DNA of 64,000 bases from Candidatus Bathyarchaeota archaeon (GCA_963717465.1 OY970340.1:992001-1056000), one strand, 5' to 3'; numbered from the stretch's first letter, positions 35,682-56,430 are shown. Program-made: numbers and translations. Notes: generated by a model not told the origin, from the letters alone.

Positions 35682-35777
35682 ACAGAAATTCAAATTCGTA
35701 ACAATTATGCTATACTTTTGTAATATCCTATTGCTGAAATCAGCCAAAAATTAATTTAGAGCTTAAAAATGTTGAAG

Positions 35778-35853
35778 TAGCGGGGACTAGATTTGAACTA
35801 GTGATCTCTGGGTTATGAGCCCAGCGGGTTAATCCTGGCTACCCCACCCCGCT
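35778..35853 (-). tRNA. Initiator tRNA-Met (CAT), CCA not encoded
   Basis: Minus strand AGCGGGG...CTGGGCTCATAACCCAG...GTTCAAATC..CCCCGCTA; A1-U72 pair and three G-C pairs in the anticodon stem. Confidence 0.96.
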
Positions 35854-37104: not shown

Positions 37105-37689
37105 ATGCAGGCAAACAGCAGAAAAAGGCTCGAAGAAATAGCTTTTAAAAACGATGAAGCGCGAAGAACCACTATTATCCTTGATAAAGCTGAAAGAGAC
37201 TTTGTTGATTCGCTAATTAAAGAAGGCAAAGAACCAGGGATTAAACCGCTTATCTCAAAAATGCTTGAAGTGTATAGAAGCATGGCGATTTATGAATGGC
37301 GTTTTCCCGGAGAATACTATTTTGGGATAAGCCGAGTTGGCTTTGTAAATGTTGAATTATTAAATATTCTCATCCAACAAATTCCAAAAGAGAAATGGGT
37401 TGCAATAGGAAAAAAAATGGGCGACGCACTAAAGGTTTCTATTGAAACAACCATAGGCGTCGATTCAGGCAAGAAAGAGAATTGGGACAGCGTATTTTCA
37501 CGCTTAAAAGTTCAGGGATTTGGAGATTTCGCCCTGAAAGACAAGTACCTGCTTCTAAAAACACCACTAATTAATTGCGCGGAAATTTGTGAAGGAATGA
37601 TGGAGAGCCTATTAGGAGTAGAACTAGAAACAAAAAATTCAGCTTCGCCTATTGTTTTTGAAATAAAAACCAAAATGCATTCTAACTAA
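37105..37689 (+). CDS. Hypothetical protein, possibly RHH-like N-terminus plus V4R-like domain
   Basis: 194 aa; RRTTIIL strand then two helices; IGKKMG, GFG, GMMESLLG resemble V4R-like folds. Confidence 0.6.
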   Translation: MQANSRKRLEEIAFKNDEARRTTIILDKAERDFVDSLIKEGKEPGIKPLISKMLEVYRSMAIYEWRFPGEYYFGISRVGFVNVELLNILIQQIPKEKWVAIGKKMGDALKVSIETTIGVDSGKKENWDSVFSRLKVQGFGDFALKDKYLLLKTPLINCAEICEGMMESLLGVELETKNSASPIVFEIKTKMHSN

Positions 37690-37705: not shown

Positions 37706-37840
37706 TTAAATATTAAGGAAACACTTTATAAGGAAGACAGCAAATGGTGTCTTCCAGTGATTAACAATGAGGGATTGCGTTCATACAAGGCGATTGCATT
37801 CATCTGGAATAAAAGCAATCCAGAAAATCAGCGTCTAAAA
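37706..37840 (+). promoter_or_regulatory. Conserved promoter/leader element upstream of his operon with 23-aa uORF (37767-37838)
   Basis: Four ordered blocks shared with 52630-52761; uORF MRDCVHTRRLHSSGIKAIQKISV. Confidence 0.7.
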
Positions 37841-37878
37841 ACGAAAAACTATTTTATATTAGGCACAAAACCTCAAAA

Positions 37879-37917
37879 AACGATTTTTTCGAAACAATTT
37901 TTGAATAAAAAATCGTT
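37879..37917 (+). terminator. AT-rich inverted repeat with oligo-T tracts between leader and hisG; possible attenuator/terminator
   Basis: AACGATTTTTT (37879-37889) is the exact reverse complement of AAAAAATCGTT (37907-37917). Confidence 0.45.
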
Positions 37918-37950
37918 CAGTTGTATCTCTCAAAAATTAGGTGTTAAAAA

Positions 37951-38954
37951 ATGGAAAAATTAAAATTTGCCATACCAGCTGGCTCCTTATCAAAAGCAAC
38001 CTATGAAATATTTGCGCGTTCAGGCTACAAGATTACAGGGCAAGAACGCACTTATAGACCTACAATAAATGACCCTAGAATTGAATTAAAAATTCTGCGA
38101 CCGCAAGAAATCCCGTTCTTTGTAAGTGAAGGCTTACAGGATGCGGGAATCACTGGACAGGATTGGGTCAGGGAAACCAAAGTTGACGTTGAAGTAGTTC
38201 AGAACTTGGAGTACGGGAAAATCAGGTTAGTCGTTGCTGTACCAAAAAGTTTGAGTGAAATCGGCTCTATGTCTGCCATCATGGAGAATGTTTGGAGCAA
38301 AGGAAAAAACTTCCGCGTTTCAACCGAGTACCTCAACATTGCATCAGAATACATAAAAAGCAATGCATCGTACAAGAAGCGGTTTGGAAATTCTGATCCG
38401 ATAATTGTTACTCCCTGGTGGAGGAAAGGTGACAATCCGCGAGCAAAAATATTCCTGTCTTTTGGCGCTACTGAAGCTAAACCGCCAGAAAACTCTGACT
38501 GCATCATCGACGTAACTGAAACAGGGTCAACGCTTGAAGCGAACAACCTGAAAATAATTGAAACAGCCATGGAGTCCTCAGCTGTCCTTATAGCAAACAA
38601 GAAATCGCTTGAAGACCCTGAGAAAAAAGAAAAAATCTTTCGACATAATGACCCTGCTCAAAGGCGTTGTAGATGGCTCTAAGCGAATTCACATTTTCGT
38701 TAACGTGCGCAAGGTAAACCTACAAAAACTGTTAACATCGCTGCCTGCATTAAAGAATCCTACAATTGCACCTTTGGCAGATGAGAATTGGTGTTCAGTT
38801 AACACGGTCATTGAAAAAGACTCACTTAATCGAGCTTTTGCCAAAAATACGCAAGCTTGCCCAAGGATTAGTAGTTTATGAGCCAAGGCAGGTTCTGGCA
38901 TTGGATGAAATAAGCTTAAGAGAAGAAAAATCATGCCAAAACAAATCCAAATAA
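37951..38954 (+). CDS. hisG: ATP phosphoribosyltransferase, long form; two frameshifts (~38640, ~38829)
   Basis: RPQEIP, DAGITG, GATEAKP, DVTETGSTL..N.L; C-terminal PALKNPTIAPL. Confidence 0.93.
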
Positions 38955-40239
38955 GAGTTTGGGAAGCCAAAAATTTACCTTCCAACTGGCTTAAGCGTCA
39001 ATCAATCGACCAAAAAGACGACATGCAAGTGGAAAATAGTGTTAAGGATCGTTATAAAGCAAGTAGTCGAAAAAGGCAACGAGGCACTAATAGAGTTAAC
39101 CGAGAAATTTGATAAAGCAAAATTAACCGCCGAAACTCTCAGAGTTACAACTGAAGAAATAAAGGAAGCCTACAAATCAGTAACCAAAGAACAAGTCAAA
39201 GCACTCAAACTAATGAAGGACAGAGTTAAAGCTTTTGAACAATCACAAATAAACAAAACCAAAACAGAAACAATCCGCAACGGCATCACCATCCAAACCG
39301 TTCTTAAGACCTCTTGAAAGCGTCGGTTGCTATGTTCCTGGCGGGCAAGCAGTTTACCCAAGCACGTTAATAATGACTGCGACTCCAGCTAAAGTTGCCG
39401 GTGTCCCAAGAATTGTTGCTTGTTCACCGCCAAACGCGGATGGAAAAGTTAACCCGCTAATTCTTGTCGCTGCTGACCTTTGCGGAGTTGACGAAGTGTA
39501 CAAGGTTGGTGGAGCCCAGGCAATTGCTGCTTTAGCTTATGGGACAGAAACGATAAAGCCTGTGCGAAAAATCGTTGGTCCAGGCAGCAAGTATGTGACG
39601 ATGGCCAAGGTTCTTGTTTCAAGAGATGTCGCCATTGATATGCCGGCTGGTCCAAGCGAAGTTCTCATTTTGGCTGATGATTCTGCTGATCCAAAGCTTA
39701 TCGCGTACGACATGATTTCACAAGCAGAACATGGAAGTGACAGCGTCTCAGCACTCATAACCACTTCACAAGGAAATCGCAAATCAAGTCCAGGAAAACC
39801 TCACTGAACTGGCAAATTTAGCGGAAAGAGGTGAAAAAGTTGCTGCGTCACTGGAGAAATACGGGTTCATAATTACTTGTGACAGACATGGATCAAGCAA
39901 TAAGCCTAACTAACGAGTTTGCATCTGAACACCTTGAAGTTATGACGGCTAAGCCTAAGGAAACCGCCAAAAAACTCACTGCAGGATTAATCTTGATAGG
40001 CCCATACTCTCCAGTTGCATTAAGCGATTATGCCGTTGGAACAAATCATGTGTTGCCCACAGCAGGCTTCGCACACTCATTCTCAGGTTTATCCGTTTTC
40101 GATTTCATGAGACGCGTTAACATTGTTGAAAGTTCAAAAGACGGATTAACAAAAGTGAAAGACATCAATTGAAGTCTTGACAAAAGCAGAAAACCTTCCC
40201 AATCACTACAAAGCAATAGACGCAAGGTTCAAGAAATGA
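38933..40239 (+). CDS. hisD: Histidinol dehydrogenase; several frameshifts
   Basis: [52 protein letters not shown] across frames. Confidence 0.93.
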
Positions 40240-41355
40240 GCGCATCCTACAGAAAATGGCTCGATCAAAAGCTCGCCAAATTGCAGGAAATCGACTGCTA
40301 CTCAGCAGGTGCAACGCCTGAAACAGTAGCGAAGCAAATAGGCGTCTCAACAGAGAAGATTGTTAAGCTCAATTTTAACGAAAGCTTGTTTGTTGATAGA
40401 GCAAAGCAAGCGAAACTGGTTAAGGAGTTGGCTGATGAACTTGATTTGCGCCTGTATCCTGAAGATGAAGTGCCCCGATTTCTAGCCAAGCTTTCACGCT
40501 ATATTGGGGCTCCAGAGGAGTGTCTTGTTGTCGGCAACGGCGGGGACGAATTAATCGATCGCATCATCAGGCTCTTTGTAGAAACAGGAGAAGTCACACT
40601 GGCCGTTCGCGCCGACGTTTAGCATTCCAAGACTTTGCGTTAAACGGCAAGGCGGCGAGTACATTGCAGTGCCTCTTCTGGGCAACTTGCAGCTTGATGT
40701 CAAAGGCTTGTTGGGTAAATTCTCTGAGAAAACAAGGTTGCTGTATTTATGCTCGCCTAATAATCCAACTGCAAATCAGTTCAAAATTGAAGACATTGAA
40801 ACCTTAGTTAAAGAGTTTCCAGGTATAGTTATTTTAGACGAGGCCTATGGCGAGTTTGCTGATTACTCATTTGTTCCACGTCTGAGTGAGTTTCAAAATA
40901 TGATAATTCTGCGAACGTTCTCTAAAGCCTTCGGGCTGGCGGCATTGCGGCTTGGTTATGCTGTTGCAAATCCAGATTTAGCAAGGATTCTTAGAGAGAA
41001 AGCTCCGTTGCCTTATCCAGTTAGCGGTTTCACGTTGCGGATGGGCTGCAAAATGCTTGACAACATTGCGCTAATGCAGAAGTCGGTAAAAGCGCTTGTT
41101 GCTGAACGGGGTAAGCTGATTAAGGCTCTAAACAAGATAGAGGGTGTGCAAGCTTTCGATTCTCAAGCTGACTTTTTATTGGTGAATACTCAAAAGCCTG
41201 CTGATGAAGTTAATGAGAAACTGCTTAAACGAGGTATAATGCTTAAAAAATGGGGTAAAATCCTTCAGTACGATAACTGTTTCCGTGTTACTGTAGGTTT
41301 ACCTGAAATGAACAAGAAATTAATCGTTGCATTAAAAGAAATTCAAAGTGAATGA
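40236..41355 (+). CDS. hisC: Histidinol-phosphate aminotransferase; frameshift near 40610
   Basis: GNGGDELI, CSPNNPT, DEAYGEF, RTFSKAFGLAALRLGY. Confidence 0.93.
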
Positions 41356-41935
41356 ATATGGCTAGGATAGATGAAGTTAAACGTAAAACTAAAGAAACTG
41401 AAGTCAACGTGAAAGTAAATCTTGACGGCGAAGGCAAAGTAACCGTTGCTACGAATGTAGCGTTCCTTGACCACATGATAACCAGCCTTGCCACGCACAG
41501 CCTAATTGATATCGAGGCATCGGTGAAAGGCGATTTGGTGCACCACTGTATGGAAGACTTAGCCATCGGCTTAGGCGAAGCATTAAACAAAGCCTTAGGA
41601 ACACGTGAAGGCATCACAAGGTTCGGTAACGCAGCTGCGCCAATGGATTGTTCCCTTGCTTTTGCGCAGTGGATTTGGTTAAGCGCCCATACTTCAAAAT
41701 TGACCTAAAACTTAAAGGCAAGAAAATGGAGGACATGCCCACAGAGGATATTAATCACTTCTTTGAGTCACTTACCACTTCACTGCAAGCAAACGTTCAC
41801 ATATTCATTCAGTATGGTAGCAACGATCACCACAAAGCAGAAGCAGCAACCAAAGCACTCGCACTATCACTTCGACAAGCAGTCACGCTGGATCCAAGAC
41901 GAAAAGGAGTACCAAGCTGCAAAGGAGTTATCTGA
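41352..41935 (+). CDS. hisB: Imidazoleglycerol-phosphate dehydratase; frameshift near 41665
   Basis: RKTKET, FLDHM, HHCMED, NDHHKAEA motifs. Confidence 0.93.
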
Positions 41936-42540
41936 TGCCACAAATAGTCATATTCGACTATGGCGTTGGAAACCTGCTCAGCCTAAAATGCGCACTTGAA
42001 AAAGCTGGTTTGACCGCTTCAATCGGAACATCAAAAGAGCAACTAAAGAATGCAGATGCAATCGCTTTGCCCGGAGTCGGCAACTTTAGCGCTGCCGCTA
42101 CAAAACTAAATCAGGTGCAAGAGACAATTAAGTCCATGGTTGACGATGGAACACCACTTTTAGGCATATGTTTAGGTTTGCAACTTTTCTTCCAAGAAAG
42201 CCAAGAGGGACCCGGAGATGGCTTAGCGCTTTTTAGCGGCAAAAACATTTGGTTACCAAATTCAGTCAAAGTGCCCCATATGGGTTGGAACACGCTGGAA
42301 ATGGTTAAGCAAGACGAGCTCTTCGACGGGGTTGCTCCTGGCTCTTTTGTTTACTTTGTTCACTCGCTCTATCCTGTACCGCTGGATAAAAATATAGTCT
42401 GCACCAAAACTTCTTACGGGGACATCTTTACTTCATCGATAACTTGCAAGAACGTTTATGGAACCCAGTTCCATCCTGAGAAATCAGGCGAAATCGGACT
42501 GAAAATTCTGCAAAACTTCGCTAAAATTGTAACAAGGTGA
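41935..42540 (+). CDS. hisH: Imidazole glycerol phosphate synthase glutaminase subunit
   Basis: LPGVG, GICLGLQ, KVPHMGWN, YFVHS, QFHPEKS. Confidence 0.96.
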   Translation: MPQIVIFDYGVGNLLSLKCALEKAGLTASIGTSKEQLKNADAIALPGVGNFSAAATKLNQVQETIKSMVDDGTPLLGICLGLQLFFQESQEGPGDGLALFSGKNIWLPNSVKVPHMGWNTLEMVKQDELFDGVAPGSFVYFVHSLYPVPLDKNIVCTKTSYGDIFTSSITCKNVYGTQFHPEKSGEIGLKILQNFAKIVTR

Positions 42541-43269
42541 TTAAGATGCAACTAATTCCCGCTATCGATCTTATGAATGGTAAAATTGTGAGGTTAAGCC
42601 GCGGCGACCCCAAGACTGCTAAAATTTACGAGCAGTTTGGAGGTCCCGTGGAGACTGCTAAAAAATGGCATGATGATGGCGCAAGAAAACTGCACATTAT
42701 AGATTTAGATGCTGCATTTGGCACAGGGAATAATCGGGTGGTAATTTCAGAAATTGCAAAGAGCATCAATTTGCCCATTCAGGTGGGCGGCGGAATTCGC
42801 AGCTTCGAGATTGCCAAAGAACTGCTTTTGCAGCGGTGTGCGCCAAGTTATCTTGGGTTCTTTAGCATTCAGCAATGAAACGGTGATAAGTGAGATTCAA
42901 AGAGAGTTCGGGGTTGAAGCTGTGATTGTTGCTTTAGACAATAAGGATGGTAAAATAATGGTTGAAGGATGGAAAACAACTACAGATTTAACCGTTGAAG
43001 ATGCCTTGGAGAAATTTACTTCATTAGGCGTTAATAGGTTTCTTATTACTTCAATAACGAAAGATGGGATGCTTTCAGGTCCAGATCTTGAAACACTCAG
43101 CCAAGCATGCCAATACCCCAATGTCAAAGTTATTGCGGCTGGCGGAATAGGTGCGTTAAAGGATTTAGCAGCGCTCAAACGTGTCGGCGTTGAAGGTGCA
43201 GTGATCGGCAAGGCTCTTTACGAAGACAGGTTCACGCTAAAAGATGCGTTAAAACTCATAGGAGATTAA
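42537..43269 (+). CDS. hisA: ProFAR isomerase; frameshift near 42830
   Basis: [28 protein letters not shown]. Confidence 0.93.
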
Positions 43270-43276
43270 GAAGAAT

Positions 43277-44081
43277 TTGCCTTTAGCTAAGCGTATAGTT
43301 CCATGCTTGGATGTTGACAAGGGAAAAGTGGTAAAAGGTGTAAACTTTTTGCAGTTAAAGCACGCTGGCGACCCTGTTGAACTGGCTAAGCGTTATTCAG
43401 ATGAAGGTGCTGATGAGCTTGTTTTTTTGGATATAACTGCTTCATCAGATAAGCGGGACATTTTGCGTGCAGTGGTTGAAGGCGTGGCTAGAGCAATAAG
43501 CATACCGTTTACCGTTGGCGGGGGCATACGAAATGTTTCAGATGCAAGGCTTGTCTTATGCAGTGGCGCTGACAAGGTTTCTGTCAACACTGCAGCGGTG
43601 GAAAACCCGAAAGTAATAACCGAATTAGCGGACGTTTTCGGCAGGCAATGCGTAGTTACCGCTATAGATGCGAAAAGAAACCACAATGTAACAGCGGACA
43701 AAATTGCAGTGCAGACAAGTCAAGGATCCGTATGGTTTGAGGTTTACACTTACGGTGGAAGAAAACCAACAGGAATAGATGCTATCCAATGGGCTACGCA
43801 AGCTGAGAAGCTTGGTGCAGGCGAGTTCCTCGTCACTTCCATGGATAAAGATGGCACAGAAGACGGCTACGACATGGAGCTAACCCGAACAATCTCAGAA
43901 AAAGTAAACGTCCCCGTTATCGCAAGCGGAGGAGCAGGAGTTCCAAAGCATTTCCTTGAAGTTTTCACAAATGGCAAAGCCGATGCAGCATTGGCCGCTT
44001 CAGTCTTCCACTACAACAAGTACCCAATTCCAGTCATCAAGGATTATCTTGCGAAAATCGGGGGTGACGATTAGATCATGA
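43277..44081 (+). CDS. hisF: Imidazole glycerol phosphate synthase cyclase subunit; probable frameshift in G-run near 44062
   Basis: [39 protein letters not shown]. Confidence 0.95.
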
Positions 44082-44411
44082 CAGAACAAGATTTGCTCGG
44101 AAAATTGGATTTTAACAAGGGCAACGGGCTTATTCCCGTAGTTGTCCAAGACATGCAAAACAAAGGAGTTGTTGATGCTTGCTTACGCTAACAAGGAAGC
44201 ATTAGAAAAAACGTTAAGCACAGGATTTGCTCACTACTGGAGTCGTTCGAGAGGCCAACTGTGGATGAAAGGTGAAACTTCGGGGCATACTCAGAAAATA
44301 GTTTCAGTTTTAACTGACTGCGACTACGACACACTATTGTACATAGTTGTTCAGAAGGGAAATGCTTGTCACACTGGCAAACCGACTTGCTTCTTCAACA
44401 AGATATTGTAG
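44078..44411 (+). CDS. hisI: Phosphoribosyl-AMP cyclohydrolase; frameshift near 44153
   Basis: [37 protein letters not shown]. Confidence 0.94.
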
Positions 44412-44477
44412 CCAACACTTTTAAGAAAAAACCTCCTTACTTATTAAACAAGTTTATTGCTGTTTGGTGAAAACGCA

Positions 44478-45536
44478 ATGCCTTTACATGAAGCTATGCT
44501 TTACAGCAGACAAGCAGAGAACAAAGTCAAATGCTCATTATGCGCTAGGCGTTGCCTTATCAGTGATGGATCAACAGGTTTTTGTCTGGTTCGGGCAAAT
44601 CAGGGCGGTACACTTTACTCGCTAAATTATGGAAAGGCGGTTTCAGCTTGTGTTGACCCTATAAGCAAAAAACCCTTATCACATTTTCATCCTAATGCAC
44701 TTGTAATGTCGATTGCGGCAGCTGGCTGCAATTTCCGTTGCCAATTCTGCGATAACTGGATGATAAGTCAAGGAAAAGAAATCGCAGGTAAACCATTCAG
44801 CCCAGCAGATATTGTGAAAGCAGCAAGGGAAAGTAATTGCCAAGGAATAAGCTACACGTACACTGAGCCGACAATATTATATGGAGTACGCTTATGAAAC
44901 CGCCAAGATTGCTCATCAAGTCGGTTTCTTTAACACTTTCGTCACAAACGGGTACATGACGCCTGAAGCAGTAAAATTAATTGCTCCAGTATTAGATGCG
45001 GCGACAGTTGATTTTAAAGGCGGCGGGGACCCAGAATTTTACAAGAGTTTTTCTGCAGTGCCAAGTGTTGAACCTATTTATGAAGCTCTAAAAGAGTTGA
45101 GATCGAATGGTGTTCATGTAGAAATTACTAATTTGATTGTTCCGAAAATTGGAGATTCAATGGATAGAATAAAGGAAATGGCCAATTGGATTAAGAATTA
45201 CTTGGGAAAAGATACGCCGTTTCATTTGTTGCGTTTTCATCCTGATTATAAGATGACAACGATTCCAGCAACCTCATCTGAGAGTCTTAGAGAGAGCGTA
45301 CATGACGGCGAAGAATGAAGGGTTAAATTATGTTTATCTTGGAAATCTGCCTGGGCATCCAGCAGAAAATACTTATTGTCCCAACTGCGGGGAAGCGGTG
45401 ATTAAAAGGTACAGTTTTGAGATTACAAAGTGGAATCTAACTAAAGATATGACGTTGCCCAGTATGTGGACAAGCCATTCCCATCAAGGGCCGATTGTAT
45501 CCCACTGGTTCTCGTTATCCATATGCGCTGTTTTAA
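44478..45536 (+). CDS. amrS: AmmeMemoRadiSam radical SAM enzyme; several frameshifts
   Basis: [41 protein letters not shown]. Confidence 0.9.
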
Positions 45537-45626
45537 TTGGTTGTTTTAATCGTGTTCCATTTCAAATGGCAAGCAATCGACAAAAACTCTTAAATTAGTC
45601 AAATCCTAATCACTCAAGGATTCTCT

Positions 45627-46601
45627 ATGTCATCCAATGGCAAATTTGAAGTATTAAGTTACGATGAGAAAACAAAGAAGTTTCTTGTTAAATCTGTATC
45701 AGGAAACAAGGTTCAAGTAGATGATACTTTTGCTGAAATGTTCGGTTTATGGGCTGGACGAGTACTTATAACCGCACAAAGCGAGAAATGGGCGACAATT
45801 GCAGGGCAAGTTGCCACTGGCTTTGCAACCAGCGTTATCGCAGCTTCGGCAGAAGCCGCAATAGAACGCGTGAGTTCCAGCTGATCAGACACCTGATAAA
45901 CGTCCAGGATTGCTTATTCAAATTTATAACCGTGACCGATTTGAATTAAAACATCAACTAATGGAACGCATAGGTCAATGTGTATTGACTTGCCCAACCA
46001 CATCAGCCTTCAACGGTCTTGATAAAACTAAACGCACACTCAACGTTGGAAGCAGTCTGCGCTATTTTGGTGATGGCTTCCAGAAAAAAACGATGGTTGG
46101 CGGAAGGAAATGCTGGAAAATCCCAGTTATGGAAGGCAACTTTATAGTTGAAGATGGATTCGGAGCACAAGAAGCAATTGCAGGCGGCAACTTTATGATT
46201 TTCGCTGAAACCCAGAAAGCAGGTCTTGAAGCCGCAGAAAAAGCCGCAGATGCGATACGAGCTAATGCGCCAGATGTTATAATGCCATTTCCAGGCGGAT
46301 TATGTCGAGCAGGAAGCAAAGCTGGGTCACTTAAATATAAAATGAAAGCTTCAACAAACCACATCTATTGCCCCACATTAAGAGGAATAGTTCCTGATGT
46401 CAGTTGTTCCAGAAAATGTTCAATGCGTTTATGAAATAGTCATGAACGGCTTATCACTTGACGCTATTAAAGCAGGGTATAAAGCAGGTATTCAAGCAGC
46501 AGCTGACGTGCACAGGTGTAGTACTGATTACAGCAGGAAACTACGGCGGCAAGTTAGGCCCATTCAAAGCCTACCTGAAAGACGCGATAGGCGCCACATA
46601 G
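45627..46601 (+). CDS. ftr: Formylmethanofuran:tetrahydromethanopterin formyltransferase; several frameshifts
   Basis: DDTFAE, TGFATSVI, TPDKRPG, RIGQCVLTCPT, IPVMEG, AGGN, PFPGG, ASTN..YCPTL, AGNYGGKLG. Confidence 0.92.
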
Positions 46602-46673
46602 CTTCTTTTTTAAGTAACTTTTATTTGATTCCACACGACGTAAAGTGTGGAACAAAAAATATAACTTTATTTC

Positions 46674-47958
46674 GTGGAAAAATATTTGAGTACAGCAAAA
46701 AAGAGTTCCCTTGAGCTATTTCGCATAAAAAAAATGCTTGATTTCCTAGCTGACAAAGAGGGTCACGCAACAGAACTTATCACGCTATATGTTCCTCCAG
46801 GAAAACAAATTAGCGATGCCTCAAACATGCTAAGGGAAGAATATGGAACAGCAACGAACATTAAAAGCAACACTACAAGAAAAAACGTTCTTGACGCAAT
46901 TACAAAAGTGCAACAGAAACTCAAACTTATAAAAGACCCAGGTGAAAACGGCTTCGTCATTTTTGCAGGTGCATTGCCACAGGAAGGCGGCGGAGGACCA
47001 GGCACAGAAAAAATCGGAAGCTTTCGTTATTGTTCCACCTGAACCAATCCGAATTTTCCTCTATAGGTGCGACGCAAAATTTCACATTGAGCATTTGCAG
47101 GAATTAATTCGTGAAAAAGAAACCTTTGGCATACTGCTTGTTGACGCTTCAGGCGCTACAATAGCCACTTTGCAGGGAAAAAGAATGCAAATTCTCCGTG
47201 AAATGTATTCGGGTGTTGCAGGAAAGACTAAGGCTGGTGGTCAATCAGCAAGGCGGTATGAACGGTTACGGGATATGCAGCTTAATGAGTATTTTACGCG
47301 TGTTGGCAAACATGCAAATGATATTTTCCTGCCAATTGAGACTTTGAAAGGTTTAATTCTTGCTGGTCCAGGACCAACAAAATATGATTTTGAAAAGGGC
47401 GATTATCTGAATTACATGTTAAAAAACAAGATACTCGACACAATTGACACGGCTTACGTTGAAGAGCAAGGTGTTAAAGAAGTTGTTGAGAAAGCACCTG
47501 AAATTATGCGGCGGGTGCGCTACATTGAAGAAAAGGAAATTATGCAGAAATTCCTGTACGAAGTTGGTCATGACACTGGATTAATTACTTATGGTGAAGC
47601 TGAAGTTAGAAAAGCTCTTCAATCAGGTATGGTTAGAACGCTTATTATTTCTGAAAGTCTTGACATGTTGCGTGTTACCGTAAAATGCAGTGCTTGCGGT
47701 TATCAAGAGCAGGAAACAGTTAAAACTTCAAACTTGAAGGTTTATGAGCAGAACCTATCAACTAAGCCTTGCCCAAAATGCGGTGCCCCTTCTCTTGGTA
47801 TAGTTGAAAAGCAGGATGTTATTGATGATTTAGCTCAACTTGCTGAAAACTCCAATGCGGATGTTGAGGTAATTTCTGCTGAAACTGAGGAAGGGCAAAT
47901 GCTGAAGAATGCTTTCGGCGGAATAGCGGCGATATTGCGGTATAAAATGCAAGGCTAA
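46674..47958 (+). CDS. prf1: Peptide chain release factor aRF1; frameshift near 47015
   Basis: TNIKS, YRCD, GGQSARRY, AFGGIAAILRY motifs. Confidence 0.95.
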
Positions 47959-48238
47959 AACCTTTCAGCAATGAAATGATTATAAAAATTAGGACGCCAA
48001 CAATATAGATCTAACAAAACATAAATTTTCTCGATTTTTGGATCTTATTGTGCGCTTTAAACAAATGTTAGTTTGATGATTAAAAGAACAAGTCCTGAAC
48101 GTTTTCTTTGTTGCTTAAGTTCCGCTAAAGTTGACGTGCACTGAATCATGACAGTGTTGCTTGTGATTCGGCTAATAAAAACCGTTTTTGATCAAATTTC
48201 GGAACACCACGCGAGCTCCCTTTGTAATAGCGCTTGTA

Positions 48239-48557
48239 TTATTCTGGAACTATTGTCGACGAAACGCGTTTCTTTAAATCGTTGTATCTTTGCGTTATTT
48301 CTTCCTTGGCAGCTGCAAGTTCAGCATTAAGTCTGGGTCTTGATTCAGGCGCCAAGTCTTTACTCTTTACAATGTCTCTCTCAATTTTCTCCAAATCGTG
48401 ATCAGCATCTCTCATCATTTCTTCCGTTTTTACCAAAGATTCTGCCTTCACTTTCTGTATCTTAACCATGTTATCTTTTACTTCCGCAGCCTTTCTTTTT
48501 TGATTTCGCTTTAACGCTTTGTATTTTTTCTAAATAATCATTTTCGGAGTCGCCCAT
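48239..48557 (-). CDS. Small coiled-coil hypothetical protein; frameshift near 48497
   Basis: MGDSENDYLEKIQSVK joins AAEVKDNMVKIQKVKAESL... after a shift in an A-run. Confidence 0.55.
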
Positions 48558-48803
48558 ACTATTCCTTCATTGCTTAACTTTATTCAACCGATTGACTATT
48601 TTATGTTTTCTGCATAATCTTACTTCAAAGAGCATGCGCTTGCTGATAATTCGCGCTTTAAATTCCCTATTAAGTTATTAACATGGAAATTTGTCGTTTA
48701 GCCCAAAGCAAAGAGATAGGCATTGTCTACCAAAGAACCTTGCAGTTTTCCGTGTTTATTCTCAACTGTTCTTCATTGCGGAAAAAAGGCTAACAGGCAA
48801 ACG

Positions 48804-49152
48804 CTATGTACTATTATTTAGCTTGAAATAAATGCACCTATTGTTTTTACCTTTGTTCTCAGTCCTGATAAGCTCAATTTTTCCAATCTCATTAAGGTTT
48901 TTAACATGGGTACCGCCATCCGCCTGCTTATCTACACCGACGATTTGGACGATTCTTAAAACCGGAAGGTCTGGCGGGAAAGCTTCAGCCATCTTGATTA
49001 CACCAGGAATTTTCATAGCTTCTTCTCGGGGCAACTCATACCATTACACGGGAATGTCGGTCCAGGATCACATGCTTTCCATCTTTCACAGAAACTACGA
49101 TTGCGTTAGATTCTTTGAGATAACTGTCGACTAAAAACAGTGCTTTTGTCAT
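48804..49152 (-). pseudogene. alaX: AlaX (alanyl-tRNA editing protein) pseudogene with internal deletion and stop
   Basis: N-terminus MTKALFLVDSYLKE...VILD joined out of frame to DIPV*WYELPREEA...QADGGTHV...ENKGKNNR. Confidence 0.85.
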
Positions 49153-49332
49153 AAGACGCCTTCCCTTTGAAGATTTATTATTCTAGAATCAAATAAAGGG
49201 ATACCCTATTCTGATTTTATCGGTTCTATGTGTAATCTTTGTCACTAAGTTGCCCTCTATTACATGTTGCCGAGAAAGAAAATTGCGGTTAACTGAAGTC
49301 AGTTGTTTTTGATTTTATCCGCTATTGTGAAG

Positions 49333-50963
49333 TCACTCAAAGGGAGTTGGCTTGTATCTTGACAGTATGCCTTTGTCGATTTTGGGTTTTCTTGGTTTCC
49401 ACGCGGTTAACCGTTCCTTTAGTTCCTTATCTGGCAGCTCAACTTTTAAGATGCGGTTGGGTATGTCGATGGTGATTTTGTCGCCTTCCTGTAAGAACTG
49501 CGATTGGTCCGCCTTCGAATGCTTCTGGAGCAACGTGTCCGATGCATGGTCCTCGTGTTGCGCCTGAAAATCTTCCATCTGTTATGAGTGCTACGCTTTC
49601 TGTTAAGCCCATGCCTGCTATAGTTGCTGTTGGAATTAGCATTTCAGGCATTCCCGGTCCACCTCGAGGGCCTTCATAACGGATAACTACGACGTCGCCG
49701 GGAACAATCTTCTTTGCTCTAATTGCGACTATTGCTTCTTGTTCAGAGTCATAGATTTTTGCGGGACCAGTGTGCTTGAGCATTTTCGGTGAGACGCCTG
49801 CGGTTTTGATTACGCCGCCTTTAGGTGCAAGATTACCAGTTAAAATAGCGATTCCGCCTTCTTTATGAAGTGGGTCAGCTAAGGGGTGAATAACCTCGCG
49901 ATTCAGTACTGTGGCATCTTTTATGTTTGCCCGTCACGGTTTTGCCTGAAACAGTTGGCAAGCCTAAGTGAAGTAAGCTTTGGATCTCGTTCATTACTGC
50001 TGGGACTCCGCCTGCGGCGTCTAAATCTTCAAGCGCATTGGGTCCGCTTGGAATCATGCCTGCTAAGTGCGGCACTTTTCTACCGATTTTATCAAAAATA
50101 GATAATGGCAAAGTGAATCCTGCTTCCTTAGCGATGGCTGGCAAATGCAGAACCGTGTTTGTTGATCCTCCAAGAGCCATATCCACTGAAATAGCGTTTT
50201 CAAAGGCAGCACGCTTCATGATATCTAAAGGCTTAACGTCTATCTTTAACAAGTGCAACTGCTCTTTTACCTGACTCTTTTGCAATTCGCATTTTCAACG
50301 CGCTTGTAGCCAGTGAAGTTGCACAGTAAGGAAGAGACATTCCCAACGCTTCCGTCATGCAAGCCATCGTGTTTGCCGTGAACATGCCACTGCAGGAGCC
50401 GCAGCCTGGACAAGCAGCATTTTCCAGACGTGCCAAGTCTTCTTCAGCCTTTTCCCAGCAACAACTTCTCCAAGGGCTTCTGGAACTGAAGAGTAACTTA
50501 TTTTTTTGCCGTCAAGGCGACCTGCAACCATTGGTCCACCTGTAACGGCTATAGCTGGCACGTTTAATCTTGCTGCAGCCATAAGCATGCCTGGAGTGAC
50601 TTTATCACAGTTTGTAACCATGACAAACCCGTCAAGTCTGTGGGCTTGAATCATGATTTCAACGCTGTCAGCAATTATTTCACGTGAGGGCAATGAATAT
50701 CGCATGCCTTCATGACCCATGGCTAACCCGTCACATACAGCTATGGTGTTGAATTCAAAGGGTACGCCGCCAGCTGCAAGTATGCCTTCTTTAACAGCTT
50801 CTCCTATGGCTCTCAGATGAATGTGTCCTGGAACAATCGATGTGTAACTGTTTGCTATTCCAATGAATGGTTTAGTCATATCACTATCTATTACGCCTAA
50901 AGATTTTAAAAGTGCTCTATGAGGTGCTCGTTCAACTCCGCGCTTAATCAAATCGCTTCTCAT
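49333..50963 (-). CDS. ilvD: Dihydroxy-acid dehydratase; several frameshifts
   Basis: [58 protein letters not shown]. Confidence 0.95.
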
Positions 50964-51039
50964 TTCATTTTGCCTCGTGCACTAAGACAGACACCATAAA
51001 TTTTATATTTAAGCATGACGCTCCTTGAAAAGTAAGTGA

Positions 51040-52605
51040 TTGAAATGGGGTATCGTTTTATTTAACCGCTTCCCTAAAAAAATACGAATTTTTGACACCA
51101 CTCTAAGAGATGGTGAACAAACACCCGGAATATCCCTAACACCTGAAAACAAATTAAGAATTGCTCAACGCTTAGATGAACTCGGCGTCAACGTGATTGA
51201 AGGCAGGCTTTGCAGCTGTTTCCGAAGGCGAACTGGAGGCAGTTAGCTCTCATTGCTAAGCAAGGTCTAAAAGCTGAAATTTGCAGTGCCGCAAGAGGTA
51301 CAAAAGGAGACATTGACGCTGTAATCAAAAGCGGCGCAAACAAGCATAAACATGATTATCCCCACATCTGATTTACACATCGAATGTAAACTTCGAAAAA
51401 CTCGGGAGCAAATTCTAAAAATAACCGAGGAATGCGTCCAATACGCTAAAGACCATGGCTTAATCGTGGAGCTTTCCGCTGAAGACGCAACAAGATCCGA
51501 TTTTGATTACTTGACTAAAAGTCTTCAAGGTAGCTGTAAGTGCTGGAGTGGACAGAGTTGTTCCATGTGACACTGTTGGCATATTGACGCCTGAAAGATC
51601 ATACGAGTTGTTCTCTAAGCTTCGAAAAACCATTAAAGTTCCAATCAGTGTACACTGCCATAACGATTTTGGCATGGCAGTTGCAAACTCCATCGCTGCC
51701 CTAAGAGCTGGAGCAAGCCAAGCTCACGCAACCATAAACGGGCTTAGGCGAACGAGCTGGAAATGCTTCACTTGAAGAAATAGTAGTTACTCTAAAATCA
51801 CTTTACAAACTTGATTTAGACATTAAAACCGAGCTTATTATACAGCACTTCCCAATTGGTATCACGTTTAACAGGCATTTACGTTCAGCCTAACAAGGCA
51901 ATAGTGGGCGAAAACGCGTTCACGCACGAATCAGGAATTCACACTCAAGGTTTACTGGCAAACCCATTAACCTACGAGCCTATCGCGCCAGAACTGGTAG
52001 GTGGGACAAGACGGATTTCGCCTGGTAAGCATTCGGGTTCTCATGGAATTAAGTCAGCCATGGAAAAAATGGGTTTAAACCCAACTGAAGAGCAGCTTAA
52101 AGAAATAATCATGAGAGTAAAAGGTTTAGGCGACAAAGGCAAAGCTGTAATGGATGCTGATTTGCTGGCGATAGCTGAAGCAGTGATGAATCTTAAAAAC
52201 ACAAGGCCGATAACTTTGCAAGAGATTACCGTGGTTAGCGGAAATAAAGTCATGCCTATGGCTTCAGTAACGTTAACTCATAACGAGAAAGAGGTTTGTG
52301 GAATAGGCACAGGCGTTGGTCCAGTTGATGCAGCAATAAACGCAGTTAAAGGCGCCATTACTGAATCTGAACCAATACAGCTTGAGCAATATCACGTTAA
52401 ATCCATCACCGGCGGAACCGACGCAATGGTTGAAGTTGAAGTACGCATGCGTAAAGGCACCAAAACAGCAACTGCAATGGGAATACGCGAAGACATCGTA
52501 ATGGCAAGCCTAGAGGCAGTAATCAACGGCATGAACGTTCTACTAACAAATTACAGCTCCTCAAATAACGCATCGAATAATTCAGTGCAAGAAGTGAAAG
52601 GTTAA
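51040..52605 (+). CDS. cimA: (R)-citramalate synthase-type member of the LeuA/CimA family; several frameshifts
   Basis: [54 protein letters not shown]; resembles methanogen CimA; family certain, paralog call inferred. Confidence 0.75.
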
Positions 52606-52629
52606 AACTGTTTGCTTACCACAAACTTT

Positions 52630-52761
52630 TTAAATATAAGGGAATTATTGGTTAAGACACGAGGAAATTCACGGAGGAATACAAATGAGGGATTGCCACC
52701 TCCATCGGGTACATATTTTCATTTTCGCCTAGATTACCCTCCGAAGAAATCTCGTCTAAAA
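52630..52761 (+). promoter_or_regulatory. Conserved promoter/leader element upstream of ilvBN-leu genes with uORF (52685-52732)
   Basis: Four ordered blocks shared with 37706-37840; GGAGG at 52673-52677 then ATG; uORF MRDCHLHRVHIFIFA. Confidence 0.7.
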
Positions 52762-52827
52762 CTGTTACAAAATTTTTTCCCATACTGGACAGTATAATTG
52801 TAAATAATAAAGGGGAAGACCTAACAA

Positions 52828-54538
52828 ATGACTAAAACATCAGGGTCAAAAGCCCTAATTCAATCTTTAGAAAACAAGAATGTCGAAGTGATATTTGGAA
52901 TACTGGGCGGAGCAATCTTGCCAGTATACGATACCCTATGCAACTCTAAAATACGCCATATACTCAGCAGACACGAACAAGGCGCAGCTCACGCAGCAGA
53001 TGGCTATGCACGTGCTAGCGGAAAAGCCGGTGTTTGCTTAGCAACATCTGGTCCAGGCGCAACAAACTTGGTTACTGGCATCGCTAATGCCTACATGGAT
53101 TCTTCACCTGTAATTGCACTAACAGGACAAGTTCCCTCAAACGGCGTTAATACTTCATATATGATTGGGAGAGATGCCTTCCAAGAAGCCGACATAATAG
53201 GGATAACAACAGCAATAACAAAATACAGCTATCCAAATACGCGATGCCGCTGAAATTCCCCGTGCGGTAAACTCAGCATTTTACATCGCAACAACAGGTA
53301 GACCTGGCCCAGTTCTAATAGACTTACCAAAAAACGTTCAAACTGAAATAAAAGAAATGGAATTCACGAATCGAGTGGAACTTAGAGGGTACAAACCGAC
53401 AATCGACCCACATCCTTTACAAATAAAGAAAGCAGCTGACCTATTAGCTAGCGCTGAGCGCCCATTGATACTAGCAGGAGGCGGAGTAATAATCGCTGGG
53501 GCTTCAGACCAACTGTTCAAAGTCTCCCAACTGCTATTGGCTCCAGTTGCTACAACGCTTATGGGCAAAGGGGCTTTTCCAGAGATTCATCCCTTATCCG
53601 TCGGAAGCATCGGAATGCATGGAAACCCAGCTGCAAACAAATTGATAGAAGAAGCTGACGTACTGTTAGCTGTGGGCACTCGCTTTTCAGACAGATCGTC
53701 AGCGAACTTGGATAGTTTCTGTCCAGACGCAAAAAGAATCCATGTTGATGTTGATGCAGCAGAAATCGGCAAGAACGTTGATGTTGAAGTACCCATCGTT
53801 GGTGATGCAAAAGTATCCTTAGGCTTACTGTATGAAGCGCTGTTGAAACTGTTGAAGAAGAAGCCTGGAGAAGCATGGACAAACCGCGTTAAACAAGTCA
53901 AAGAGCAATTAAACCCATTAATGAATAATGAAACGCAAGAACTTACTCCAAAATCGTTGCTGATAGAATTAAGAAAGATATTGCCTGAAAACGGCATAGT
54001 CACAACAGAAGTAGGTCAAAACCAAATGTGGTCCGCATTATACTTTAAAGCGCTGCATCCGAGAACATTCATAACTTCAGGCGGGTTAGGAACAATGGGT
54101 TTTGGTTTTCCAGCAGCTTTAGGCGCAAAAGTCGCTTGTCCAGACCGACCGGTAGTGGATATTGCTGGTGATGGCAGCTTCATAATGACCGAACAAGAGT
54201 TAGCATGCTCAGTTAACGAGGATATTCCAGTCACAGTCATAGTCCTGAATAATTCAGTATTAGGCATGGTGGCACAGTGGCAACGAACACTCTACAATCG
54301 CCGCTACATGGCAGTGAACTTGGGCAAAAACCCTGATTTCGTAAAACTAGCTGAAGCCTATGGAGCACAAGGCTTCCATGTAGGTTCAATCGATGAATTC
54401 CAAAAAGCAATCAAAACCGCATTAAAAAGCAAAGTTACAACAGTCATCGACGTGCCAATCTCCTCAGAAGAAAACGTCAATCCGTTTGTGCCTCCAGGCT
54501 GCGGACTTACATCAACAAACAGGAGACTACTAAAATGA
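52828..54538 (+). CDS. ilvB: Acetolactate synthase large subunit; frameshift near 53230
   Basis: [52 protein letters not shown]. Confidence 0.95.
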
Positions 54539-55047
54539 GTGAAACAAAAACCACAGTTATCTCTGCAATCGTAGAGAACAAACCCGGTGTGCTGCATAGC
54601 ATATCGAACCTGTTTCGTCGAAGAAACTTTAACATTGAAAGCATCACTGTAGGACCAACAGAACAAGAAGATCTAGCAAGGATAACTATCACAGTCAACG
54701 GTGACGAAAAAACCCTTGAGCAAGTAATCAAGCAATTAAACAAACTTATCGATGTTATCAAAGTTGCCAGGCTTGAGTCAGGAAACATGGTCGCACGTGA
54801 ATTAGCATTAATAAAAGTTAATGTGCAAGACACCAAAAACAGATCAGATATAATCAACTGCGTTGAAGTCTTCAGGGGTCACATCGTGGACTTTTCTCCA
54901 GGAGCACTAATGGTTGAAATTACAGGCAGTTCAGGCAAAATCGACGCTTTCCTAAACCTAATGAAAACATACGGAATTGTCGAACTTGCACGAACAGGAA
55001 TAACAGCCCTTGCACGAGGATCAAAATCAGCAGTAATCGACGAGTAA
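54535..55047 (+). CDS. ilvN: Acetolactate synthase small (regulatory) subunit
   Basis: [33 protein letters not shown]. Confidence 0.95.
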
Positions 55048-55159
55048 ACTATCACTCAAAAAGGAAAAACAAATTTCCACATTTATATTTCAGGATAAAT
55101 CCAAGAAAAAATTAGTTTAAACAAATTAAGTTAAATCAAATGAAAAGAAGAGAAAAAAC

Positions 55160-56430
55160 ATGAATATTACAGAAAAAATATTGGCGAAGGCATCCGGCAA
55201 AAAAACCGTGCAGCCAGGCGAAATAGTCGACGCCAAAGTTGACATGGTTATGGTTCACGATTTAACCGGACCATTAGCCGTTGAAGCCTTCAAAAAAATT
55301 GGTACACAGAAAGTTTGGGACAACAAAAAGATAGTTGTAATTCTGGATCATCAAGTTCCAGCTGAATCAATTAAAGCTGCAGAACTCCACAAAACCATGC
55401 GCCAATTCGCTAAAGAACAAAAACTGCGCATCTACGATATAGGAAAAGGCGGAATATGCCACCAAGTAATGCCTGAAAAAGGACATGTAATTCCAGGAAC
55501 AGTTATTGTAGGCGCTGATTCACACACATGCACTTACGGCGCTTTTGGCGCTTTTGCAACAGGCATTGGTTCAACAGAAGCCGCAGCAGTCTTTGCCACC
55601 GGCAAGATTTGGCTAAAAATTCCAGAAGCAATCAAAGTAAACGTTGAAGGACAATTCAAGAAGTTTGTCACCCCAAAGGATCTAGTCTTAGCTGTTATTG
55701 GTAAAATGAGTGTTGACGGTGCTACTTACAAGAGTGTCGAGTTCACCGGCTCCAGCAATAAAGGAAATGAGTATGGCTGGAAGAATGACACTGTGCAACA
55801 TGGCTGTAGAAATGGGCGCTAAAAACGGAATAATTGAACCAGATGAAACAACCCGCAAATTCTTAGAAGGCAGAACAAGCAAACCTTTACCCTCATTTGA
55901 AGCATTAAAGAGCGATGAAGACGCCAAATACGCGCAAGACAATGGAGTTTGATGTAGGCAAATTAGAACCTCAAGTTGCCTGCCCCTCATCCGTTGACAA
56001 CGTTAAACCCGTTTCAAAAATAGGCAACATGCCAATTGATCAAGCATTCATCGGTTCATGCACTAACGGCCGATTAGAAGATTTACGGTTAGCCGCTCAA
56101 GTATTAAAGGGCAAAAAAGTCAAGGACAACGTTAGAACACTGGTAATTCCTGCTTCCCAAGAAGTATACAAGCAAGCTCTACAAGAGGGCTTATTAGAGA
56201 TATTTACTGATGCAGGCGCCATCGTTTGCGGCTCAGCATGTGGTCCCTGCTTGGGCGGGCACATTGGATTATTAGCAGCAGATGAAACATGCGTTAGCAC
56301 TTCAAACCGTAACTTCATAGGAAGAATGGGTAGCACCAAAGCTAATGTTTTCTTAGCTTCCCCCGCTACAGTAGCAGCTTCAGCCGTTACAGGAAAAATA
56401 ACTGATCCAAGAAAACTGGAGGTAAAATAA
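55160..56430 (+). CDS. leuC: 3-isopropylmalate dehydratase large subunit; two frameshifts
   Basis: [40 protein letters not shown]. Confidence 0.94.

Follow-up and report, generated by a model that had tools for sequence, protein, structure and literature searches.

Leader reading frames upstream of the his, ilv and trp genes of Bathyarchaeia as candidate amino acid sensors operating by +1 frameshifting

The his and ilvB-leu operons of a Candidatus Bathyarchaeota archaeon are each preceded by a short leader, and both leaders lie within a stretch of 64,000 nucleotides (nt) of its genome (GCA_963717465.1 OY970340.1:992001-1056000; hereafter the window, to which coordinates refer unless the genome is named). 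Each leader carries a small upstream open reading frame (uORF), and a further uORF of the same design precedes trpE elsewhere in the genome. On balance, the his, ilv and trp leaders are probably translated uORFs that sense the amino acid of their own pathway by a +1 frameshift at codon 6. A family of frameshift-sensing leaders with His, Leu/branched-chain and Trp members appears to be the reading best supported by the data, on strong comparative evidence. The shifted frame is open from codon 6 to the first enzyme gene, and it is thus likely that a starved ribosome slips forward by one base and thereby switches the genes on. The link between the three leaders, together with these stop-free stretches (corridors) leading to the enzyme genes, is what is new here.

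The genome is a single contig of 3,053,889 bases with a completeness of 88%. The first leader is followed by hisG, hisD and a gene for a class I/II aminotransferase, and the second by ilvB, ilvN and leuC; a leuA-type gene ends just upstream of the second leader. The initial annotation had noted a block identical in the two leaders, and this 13-mer, AATGAGGGATTGC, is the start of an MRDC uORF in both. It occurs exactly twice in the whole genome, at window positions 37766 and 52684, where approximately 0.09 occurrences would be expected on both strands under a uniform model. With one mismatch or none, 12 sites were found genome-wide, the other ten of which are in unrelated contexts. Within five relatives, leader context is confined to the motif copies of his and ilv, which make up 10 of 21 pattern hits (a reversed control gave 2 hits), so that the element is not a scattered repeat such as a miniature inverted-repeat transposable element. 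Neither leader matched any Rfam family, either at the gathering score or at E<=5, and a scan of the genome for the motif revealed a third copy, before trpE.

Both leaders are conserved. That of his was found by BLAST in 24/24 genomes of the same genus, HisG is encoded downstream of 20 of the 22 leader hits tested, and a covariance model located it in 50 of 151 genomes of the order, spread over five families (f1, 28/35; f11, 17/34; f5, 2/4; f7, 1/35; f12, 1/3), as well as in a family of another order (2 of 27 genomes). The ilv uORF is present upstream of ilvB in 28/28 relatives of the genus, where a Shine-Dalgarno (SD) sequence, AGAGG, is followed by a uORF of 16 codons reading MRDRHLNSWDRRV plus three variable residues, with the stop always in the same column as TGA, TAA or TAG. 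These upstream regions were obtained by a protein search rather than with the leader itself, which as a BLAST query matched only 4 of 60 genomes of the genus. The ilv leader of the present genome is an atypical short form, having lost 12 nt (one GGGAUCGUC repeat) and carrying GATTGC instead of GATCGT. The model finds the ilv element in four genera of the family and, weakly, an ilv-type element before an aconitase-family (leuC-like) gene in another family, with the uORF MRDRFLYR. Two samples of his leaders were used, one of 65 sequences chosen by an exact 31-mer, and a diverse one of 50 sequences from several families, the alignment of which had been fitted to the model. Exact copies of the 31-base his core are present in 64 species-representative genomes, 60 of which are titled Bathyarchaeota, Bathyarchaeia or Bathycorpusculum.

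Only codons 1-6 are common to all leaders. Each begins with (A/G/U)UG-AGG-GAU, and frame 0 ends after 8-23 codons. The sixth codon always corresponds to the operon that follows: it is His in 50/50 hisG leaders, where both synonymous codons are used (CAT 30, CAC 20); CTC (Leu) in 49/49 distinct ilvB/leuC-type leaders from five genera; and Trp in 9/9 trpE leaders. It is a single cognate codon and not part of a run, the second His codon of the his leaders being in another frame. The start codon of the diverse his set was ATG in 22, GTG in 16, TTG in 9 and CTG in 1 (gapped in 2), and hence is restricted to ATG, GTG or TTG in 47/48, while codons 4, 7 and 11 vary freely. Beyond codon 6, the ilv/leu subfamilies differ from one another, the shortest leader having 8 codons (MRDRFLYR). 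No classical His run or other His-rich small open reading frame (ORF) was seen in the his leader when the sequence was read by eye, and the peptide motif M-[RG]-[DN]..H..RR fits only the his uORF in this genome, apart from two look-alikes inside coding regions.

The first codons also form an SD-like motif. The 16S ribosomal RNA (rRNA) of this genome ends in GGAUCACCUCCU, and the strongest duplex predicted between this anti-SD tail and any position along the leaders is that with GAGGGAUYG (uORF nt 3-11), at -9.1 kcal/mol in this genome and -11.5 kcal/mol in an ilv relative with GAUCG. By comparison, the duplexes at the SDs of the main genes range from -6.3 to -8.7 kcal/mol, and that at the uORF SD of the same ilv relative is -6.2 kcal/mol. 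The GAGG core ends 6 nt before codon 5, which is the P-site codon when codon 6 occupies the A site, and the offset of the motif is the same in all three kinds of leader. The his (50/50) and trp (9/9) leaders have NUU as codon 5, and so a slip there would land on UUC or UUU. The context would permit re-pairing to different degrees: trp leaders have NUU-U (9/9), his leaders have NUU-C (50/50), which allows partial re-pairing, and ilv leaders have CAC, UAC or UUC followed by C, which allows none.

In 29/29 ilv leaders, the +1 frame is open for 42-49 codons from codon 6, with a stop at -5 to +5 nt relative to the ilvB ATG. In the region from nt 21 to 6 nt before that ATG, there are 106 stops in frame 0, 85 in the +2 frame and 0 in the +1 frame, where a shuffled region would be open with P 0.065 per sequence. 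Among 15 ilv-type leaders from outside the genus, the +1 stop is adjacent to or overlaps the main start in about 12, as judged from contexts read by eye; the contexts include AUGA before a leuC-like gene, UAAAAUG and AUGAAAUG.

In the his leaders, frame 0 is open for 15-23 codons in all 65 sequences (31 being the short form of 15 codons) and has its stop at nt 46-70. The stop of the +1 frame is at nt 38-44 in 64/65, just after a second His codon at nt 35-37. This codon belongs to a second copy of the repeat GAUUGC-NUU-CAY, the offset of which is 19 nt, or six codons plus one nucleotide, and the second cassette is therefore in the +1 register. It is preceded, at the same spacing, by a weaker SD-like stretch, AAGGCGAUUG (-7.0 kcal/mol). 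In 63/65, the +2 frame runs open as far as a stop located 5 or 10 nt past the hisG ATG. Counts of stops by frame in 63 leaders were 258 (frame 0), 196 (+1) and 3 (+2), and the +2 frame was open in 61/63, with a P(open) of 0.064 in shuffles. The diverse set agrees: His6 was present in 47/48 leaders, the second His codon was at nt 35 in 45/48, a stop followed 0-2 codons later in 43/48, and the +2 stop was between -21 and +16 nt from the hisG start in all 39 leaders with a placeable start. The peptides that the corridors would encode lack a three-base periodicity (entropies by codon position, 35.4/31.3/34.4 for ilv and 31.2/31.1/33.0 for his), which indicates that it is the open frame that is conserved and not a protein.

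A 9-base-pair inverted repeat, CGATTTTTT...AAAAAATCG, lies within the his leader at 37881-37915, on an insertion that is particular to this genome and was not seen in relatives; the +2 frame remains open across it. The two his leaders recovered from the other order both carry CAC. One of them (locus L219, minus strand, approximately 610-650) reads MREYVH followed by TAG at codon 7, and the sequence beyond still resembles the R-R-L-x-S part of other his leaders; a minimal leader of six codons, a recent mutation, and read-through of TAG are each possible.

The third copy of the motif, MRDRLWNANNRHSISQHPKF, was located by a genome motif scan at genome positions 1260289-1260351 on the minus strand (locus L221, approximately 1490-1552, minus), directly before and overlapping a gene whose product has the Pfam domains Anth_synt_I_N and Chorismate_bind, and hence is TrpE. 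This leader reads ATG AGG GAT CGC CTT TGG (MRDRLW...) from genome position 1260351 on the minus strand, such that its codon 6 is Trp. In 9/9 genomes from nine genera, being those that BLAST could align, the leader has the form M-[RG]-x-x-[LIV]-W with codon 5 NUU, codon 6 UGG and the GRGG core retained. In all nine, trpE is in frame +1 of the uORF, and its frame is open back across the uORF. Three of the nine have no ATG, GTG or TTG in the trpE frame before the conserved domain, and the candidate starts of the other six are at inconsistent positions. A screen of the genome for a start codon followed by RGG, a short frame 0, and an open shifted frame reaching a long ORF returned 29 candidates, among which only the ilv and trp leaders were convincing; the his leader was missed because of the limit that the screen placed on upstream opening of the shifted frame.

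Just upstream of the trp TATA box, approximately 60-90 nt before the uORF, is a conserved inverted repeat, TGTACA-N4/5-TGTAC(T/A) (loci L221 and L222-L234). It resembles the TRP boxes bound by TrpY in methanogens, and suggests an added layer of transcriptional control at trp.

Taken together, these features suggest how the leaders may operate. With ample amino acid, the ribosome would remain in frame 0 and meet an early stop, and long-range helices (the uORF SD with CCUCU; GUGUC with GGCGC) would then close the leader. With the cognate charged tRNA scarce, codon 6 would presumably be slow to decode, and the ribosome would wait with this codon in an empty A site. The duplex between the SD-like motif and the anti-SD would hold the waiting ribosome and a +1 slip would ensue, as at prfB, where a stop codon plays the part of the slow codon. 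At trp, the shifted ribosome would read directly into TrpE. At ilv, it would translate the corridor of approximately 45 codons and terminate on the ilvB start codon (AUGA, UGAnnAUG), and by virtue of terminating there would reinitiate on it, with the leader kept unfolded. At his, the first shift would bring the ribosome to the second copy of the cassette in the +1 register, with a stop immediately after; a second +1 shift would open the corridor to hisG, where termination on or next to the start codon would again permit reinitiation and hold the leader unfolded. The requirement for two shifts would make the response steep. More broadly, Bathyarchaeia may run their amino acid operons by means of 'frameshift aminostats', in which one hungry cognate codon would cause a ribosome anchored by the SD to slip +1, either to make a TrpE fusion or to enter a corridor to the first gene, with the two slips at his conferring switch-like behavior; the case for this general proposition is viewed as evenly poised.

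The leaders also contain conserved pairings. In the his leaders, a 5' hairpin formed by AAGACA and the adjacent TGTCTT covaries: 87.5% of cells are paired among the 65 sequences, and in the diverse set of 50 all 8 pairs change on both sides, with 0/500 shuffles reaching the observed score in that model-fitted alignment. A hairpin over the his start codon (AUGA with UCAU) has 95% of cells paired, almost all changes being one-sided, and the long-range helix GUGUC/GGCGC is 97.5% paired (65 sequences), with mostly one-sided changes that retain G-U pairs. In the ilv leaders of relatives, the uORF SD pairs with CCUCU located after the uORF (AGAGG/CCUCU, 97.9% paired), and CGGAGG/CCUCCG of the present genome constitutes a compensating change from A-U to G-C. 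The outer ilv helix covaries, and a conserved block that precedes the ilvB ribosome-binding site is able to pair with nt 9-13 of the ilv uORF, with a switch from C-G to U-A in 4/4 members of one clade. The closed, off state is probably set by these helices, which on their own do not account for the reading-frame data. Eight leaders folded no better than their shuffled counterparts (z +0.35 to -1.5), and no conserved terminator hairpin or U-run was found: the T-runs range from T2 to T6 and are absent in some relatives, and no helix adjoins a U-run.

A number of observations weigh against sensing by frameshifting. The P-site codon of the ilv leaders (CAC, UAC or UUC) cannot re-pair after a +1 slip, and hence either the ilv shift site is uncertain or the shift occurs without slippage. 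A single -1 shift in the his leaders would reach the same frame as two +1 shifts. Both hisG and ilvB have SDs of their own, and so a corridor is not strictly required for their translation, and the present genome has an ATG in the trpE frame at nt 20, from which translation of TrpE could begin directly. In the his peptide, residues 8-10 and 12 are conserved as amino acids among the 50 diverse leaders, which the frameshift model explains only through the overlapping second cassette, and in one his leader of another order codon 7 is TAG. The genomes compared are related and do not count as independent samples; moreover, two of the alignments were chosen by the exact 31-mer and another was fitted to the model. 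Finally, we know of no demonstration of SD-stimulated frameshifting in archaea.

An alternative is that the ribosome does not shift frame but simply stalls, either at codon 6 or within the Val/Leu/Ile-rich tail of the ilv uORF, and thereby keeps the helices open for translation of, or read-through into, the operon, as in bacterial attenuation. The cognate codon at a fixed place would fit such a mechanism, as would the hairpin over the start codon, the covarying outer helix, the pairing of the uORF SD with CCUCU and its one compensatory change, and the block before the ilvB ribosome-binding site that pairs with uORF nt 9-13 and switches from C-G to U-A in 4/4; a leader with a Phe/Tyr run is found in the same genome. 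Stalling is nevertheless considered unlikely. It leaves unexplained why one shifted frame has 0 to 3 stops when the others have 85 to 258, why trpE is in frame +1 of its uORF with no start codon, and why the second His cassette is in the +1 register, and the leaders have neither a run of cognate codons nor a conserved terminator hairpin and U-run, with fold energies no better than those of shuffles. The conserved his residues raise the alternative of an arrest peptide, whereby the free amino acid would be bound within the exit tunnel by the nascent chain MRD-x-(V/I)-H-x-R-R-L (in ilv, ...DRRV or VRRF), with stalling of the ribosome as the result. His6 and Arg9 are each found in 50/50 of the diverse his leaders, Arg8 in 47/50, Leu10 in 46/50 and Ser12 in 49/50, with synonymous changes at these positions (CGA, CGG, CGT, AGA; TTG, CTA), and H-x-R-R resembles the sensor motif of SpeFL (10.1101/604074). 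However, the conserved his codons overlap the second cassette and a hairpin, which can account for their conservation; the ilv subfamily peptides agree only in residues 1-6, the shortest being the 8 codons of MRDRFLYR; and neither the open corridors nor the frame of trpE would be explained. An arrest peptide thus appears very improbable.

It could also be supposed that the core is an operator or RNA site for a shared regulatory protein, or that the uORFs are separate small genes for free micropeptides, with the frame features being incidental. Identity of the 31-mer core in 64 species representatives, direct repeats spaced by 19-21 nt, and the TGTACA-type boxes of the trp promoter would fit such a site. 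Against this, it is only on the + strand that substitutions preserve G-U pairs, the start codon switches from one valid start codon to another, his and ilv leaders have different repeat units, and the 2-3 copies per genome are always directly before amino acid genes; binding of a protein cannot explain why a frame is kept open, and we regard this explanation as extremely unlikely. A DNA operator for a repressor in particular is unlikely given the strand-specific substitutions that keep G-U pairs and the reading-frame signals. A riboswitch or T-box was rejected on the basis of the lack of an Rfam match, the fold z-scores of +0.35 to -1.5, and an invariant core that consists of coding sequence and the SD-like motif. 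A T-box-like arrangement with Ile/Val codons in hairpin loops was dropped because the second triplet varies among GUC, GCC, GAC and GCU, and a box C/D or kink-turn element, based on AUGAUGA in his relatives, because the present genome and the ilv leaders are without AUGAUGA.

With regard to the element as originally described, the four blocks that the initial annotation had reported as shared by the two leaders are all present in place, and the first of them is simply the TATA box. The view that the operons share an amino acid-responsive cis-regulatory element can be retained in part: a shared, conserved, cis-acting uORF system tied to amino acid operons is supported by the comparisons above, and a riboswitch-like RNA is not, in view of the Rfam and folding results. 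A uORF extending to GTC-TAA in both leaders is not supported, as this applies to his (37767-37838) and fails for ilv, where the standard code gives an in-frame TAG at 52730-52732. The other shared features did not survive comparison with relatives. The proposed closing helix of approximately 100 nt between a 5' AGAC and a 3' GTCT is not conserved, and neither is AAGACA as a shared block, being in his a part of the local 5' hairpin. CGTCTAAAA, from the fourth block, is missing from the ilv leaders of 28/28 relatives of the genus and its region is deleted in many aligned his leaders; it occurs 3 times in the window compared to 0.71 expected, and 3/100 shuffles reach 3. The oligo-T tracts before the first genes are not conserved, and termination there is unsupported. 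The features of the two leaders are compiled in Table 1.

Table 1. Features of the his and ilv leaders, in coordinates of the window.
Feature	Position	Strand	Remarks
his TATA box, TTAAATAT	37706..37713	+	Nearly invariant in 20 genus relatives; putative promoter, from its position
5' hairpin, GGAAGACA (37732-39) / TGTCTTCC (37748-55)	37732..37755	+	Contains the AAGACA block
Weak SD of his uORF, GTGAT	37757..37761	+	Predicted duplex with 16S 3' tail, -6.6 kcal/mol
his leader ORF, frame 0, MRDCVHTRRLHSSGIKAIQKISV, stop TAA	37767..37838	+	Open in 65/65 relatives, 15-23 codons
SD-like motif, GAGGGATTG, his copy	37769..37777	+	Predicted frameshift stimulator; -9.1 kcal/mol vs -6.3 for hisG SD
First shift cassette, P-site GTT plus His sensor codon 6, CAT (37782-84)	37779..37784	+	
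Second cassette, GATTGCATTCAT, +1 register	37792..37812	+	Second His codon, 37801-03; +1-frame stop TAA, 37810-12
+2-frame stop-free corridor, from second His codon to stop (37961-63) overlapping hisG start	37802..37963	+	
GGCAC, 3' partner of GTGTC (37747-51)	37862..37866	+	Long-range helix enclosing his uORF
hisG SD, AGGTG (37939-43), and start codon (37951-53)	37939..37953	+	Pfam HisG, E 1.5e-39
ilv TATA region	52627..52639	+	CTTTTTATTT conserved in relatives; putative promoter
SD of ilv uORF, CGGAGG	52672..52677	+	Pairs with CCTCCG at 52738-43
ilv leader ORF, frame 0, MRDCHLHRVHIFIFA, stop TAG (52730-52732)	52685..52732	+	15 codons
SD-like motif, GAGGGATTG, ilv copy	52687..52695	+	-9.1 kcal/mol with 16S tail
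CTC, Leu sensor codon 6	52700..52702	+	49/49 distinct leaders
+1-frame stop-free corridor, from codon 6 to TAA (52833-35) overlapping ilvB start (ATG 52828)	52701..52835	+	

Other observations concern the surroundings of the leaders. In this assembly, each of hisG, hisD, ilvB and leuC is broken up among 2-3 ORFs that lie in different frames (37951-41355 and 52828-56430). As ilvB is intact in 28 relatives (569-595 codons), this looks like either indel errors of a long-read assembly or recent decay; the leaders agree with those of relatives and are unaffected by the splits. The short length of the ilv leader (88 nt vs 100) is common to another genus (g21) and not to its own. An ORF of 194 amino acids without a Pfam match (37105-37689, +) ends 17 nt before the his promoter, and a gene for tRNA-Met (CAT) at 35777-35853 (-) was the sole hit of Rfam and ARAGORN in the window. 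Located 7.8 kilobases beyond the window, at genome positions of approximately 1063766-1063828 on the minus strand, is a Phe/Tyr-rich leader ORF, MIANSDHIFSFEYCFYYYFP, that does not start with MRD. The exact Bathyarchaeia his core was also found on two contigs (L121 and L165) titled Nanoarchaeia and Methanocella, titles that are probably binning or labelling errors in metagenome-assembled genomes.

Archaea are not known to have T-boxes, no leader-peptide attenuators have to our knowledge been described in them, and little is documented of how they match amino acid synthesis to supply. If the proposal is correct, hungry-codon frameshifting would have its first natural regulatory use in these leaders, and bacterial attenuation would have a counterpart in archaea. 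An error of the ribosome in keeping frame would serve as the sensor for at least three pathways (His, Leu/branched-chain and Trp) in several families of an abundant uncultured lineage, and the annotated starts of trpE in this group would be wrong or absent. A search for similar leaders could rely on three rules, namely that an SD-like motif is present, that codon 6 is cognate to the pathway, and that a shifted frame is open. A 2016 review of frameshifting states that 'no examples are known' of the starvation-specific use of hungry-codon frameshifting (PMC5009743). In passages of a 2021 review on recoding in archaea, a single cellular case of frameshifting is given, fucA1 (-1), with suggested cases in viruses and magnesium chelatase, and the listings and abstracts from full-text literature searches held no description of such leaders in archaea, nor of this manner of amino acid sensing.

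The closest parallel is with prfB, an autoregulatory sensor in which a +1 shift occurs at a CUU-U P-site codon before a slow A-site stop codon, with an SD-like sequence a few nt upstream. The prfB frameshift is named in PMC5009743 and PMC8211752. The leaders likewise have a candidate SD-like stimulator upstream of the putative shift site (GAGGGAUYG, whose predicted duplex with the 16S tail of this genome is -9.1 to -11.5 kcal/mol), a P site of the CUU-U type is seen in the trp leaders as NUU-UGG, and the productive frame is +1 of a short frame-0 ORF (trpE 9/9, ilv 29/29; for his, +2 in 61/63, or two +1 steps). They differ from prfB in that the slow codon would be a sense codon for the end product of the pathway and not a stop and, except for trp, in that the output would be a spacer ORF ending on the start of the next gene instead of a fused protein; in addition, the his version would need two shifts, the host is an archaeon, and the leaders are known from sequence alone. 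A shift without slippage, as the ilv leader would need, has a precedent in the +1 frameshift of Ty3, which occurs without P-site slippage; the Ty1/Ty3 and hungry-codon (Gallant) sites differ from the leaders in being known from retrotransposon expression or starvation experiments.

The leaders of bacterial attenuators (hisL, ivbL/ilvL, leuL and trpL; Rfam His_leader and others) are also short, translated and placed before his, ilv-leu and trp operons, where they read charged tRNA through cognate codons and adopt alternative pairings. In contrast to these, the archaeal leaders have one cognate codon at the fixed position 6 instead of a run, no conserved terminator hairpin and U-run, and no Rfam match, and they have a conserved open shifted frame and an N-terminal MRD common to different operons. 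TnaC, which stalls with tryptophan, and SpeFL share with them a conserved leader peptide, in this case with H-x-R-R, a stop codon whose identity varies freely, and control of a downstream operon. SpeFL captures ornithine by means of the sensor motif HIRRXXH (10.1101/604074). In SpeFL and TnaC, it is a free ligand that is sensed within the exit tunnel, and Rho is blocked, whereas the leaders share only codons 1-6 and their frame layout points to frameshifting; conservation of the peptide that would occupy the tunnel extends to residue 12 in his, and the ilv subfamilies agree only in residues 1-6. A +1 frameshift within the leader gene of an amino acid operon has one parallel in pheL of Escherichia coli, where it takes place at the stop codon and was judged incidental, with no effect on pheA (PMC3082878). 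With the leaders of Bathyarchaeia, on the other hand, the conserved corridors and the frame of trpE argue that the shift is used.

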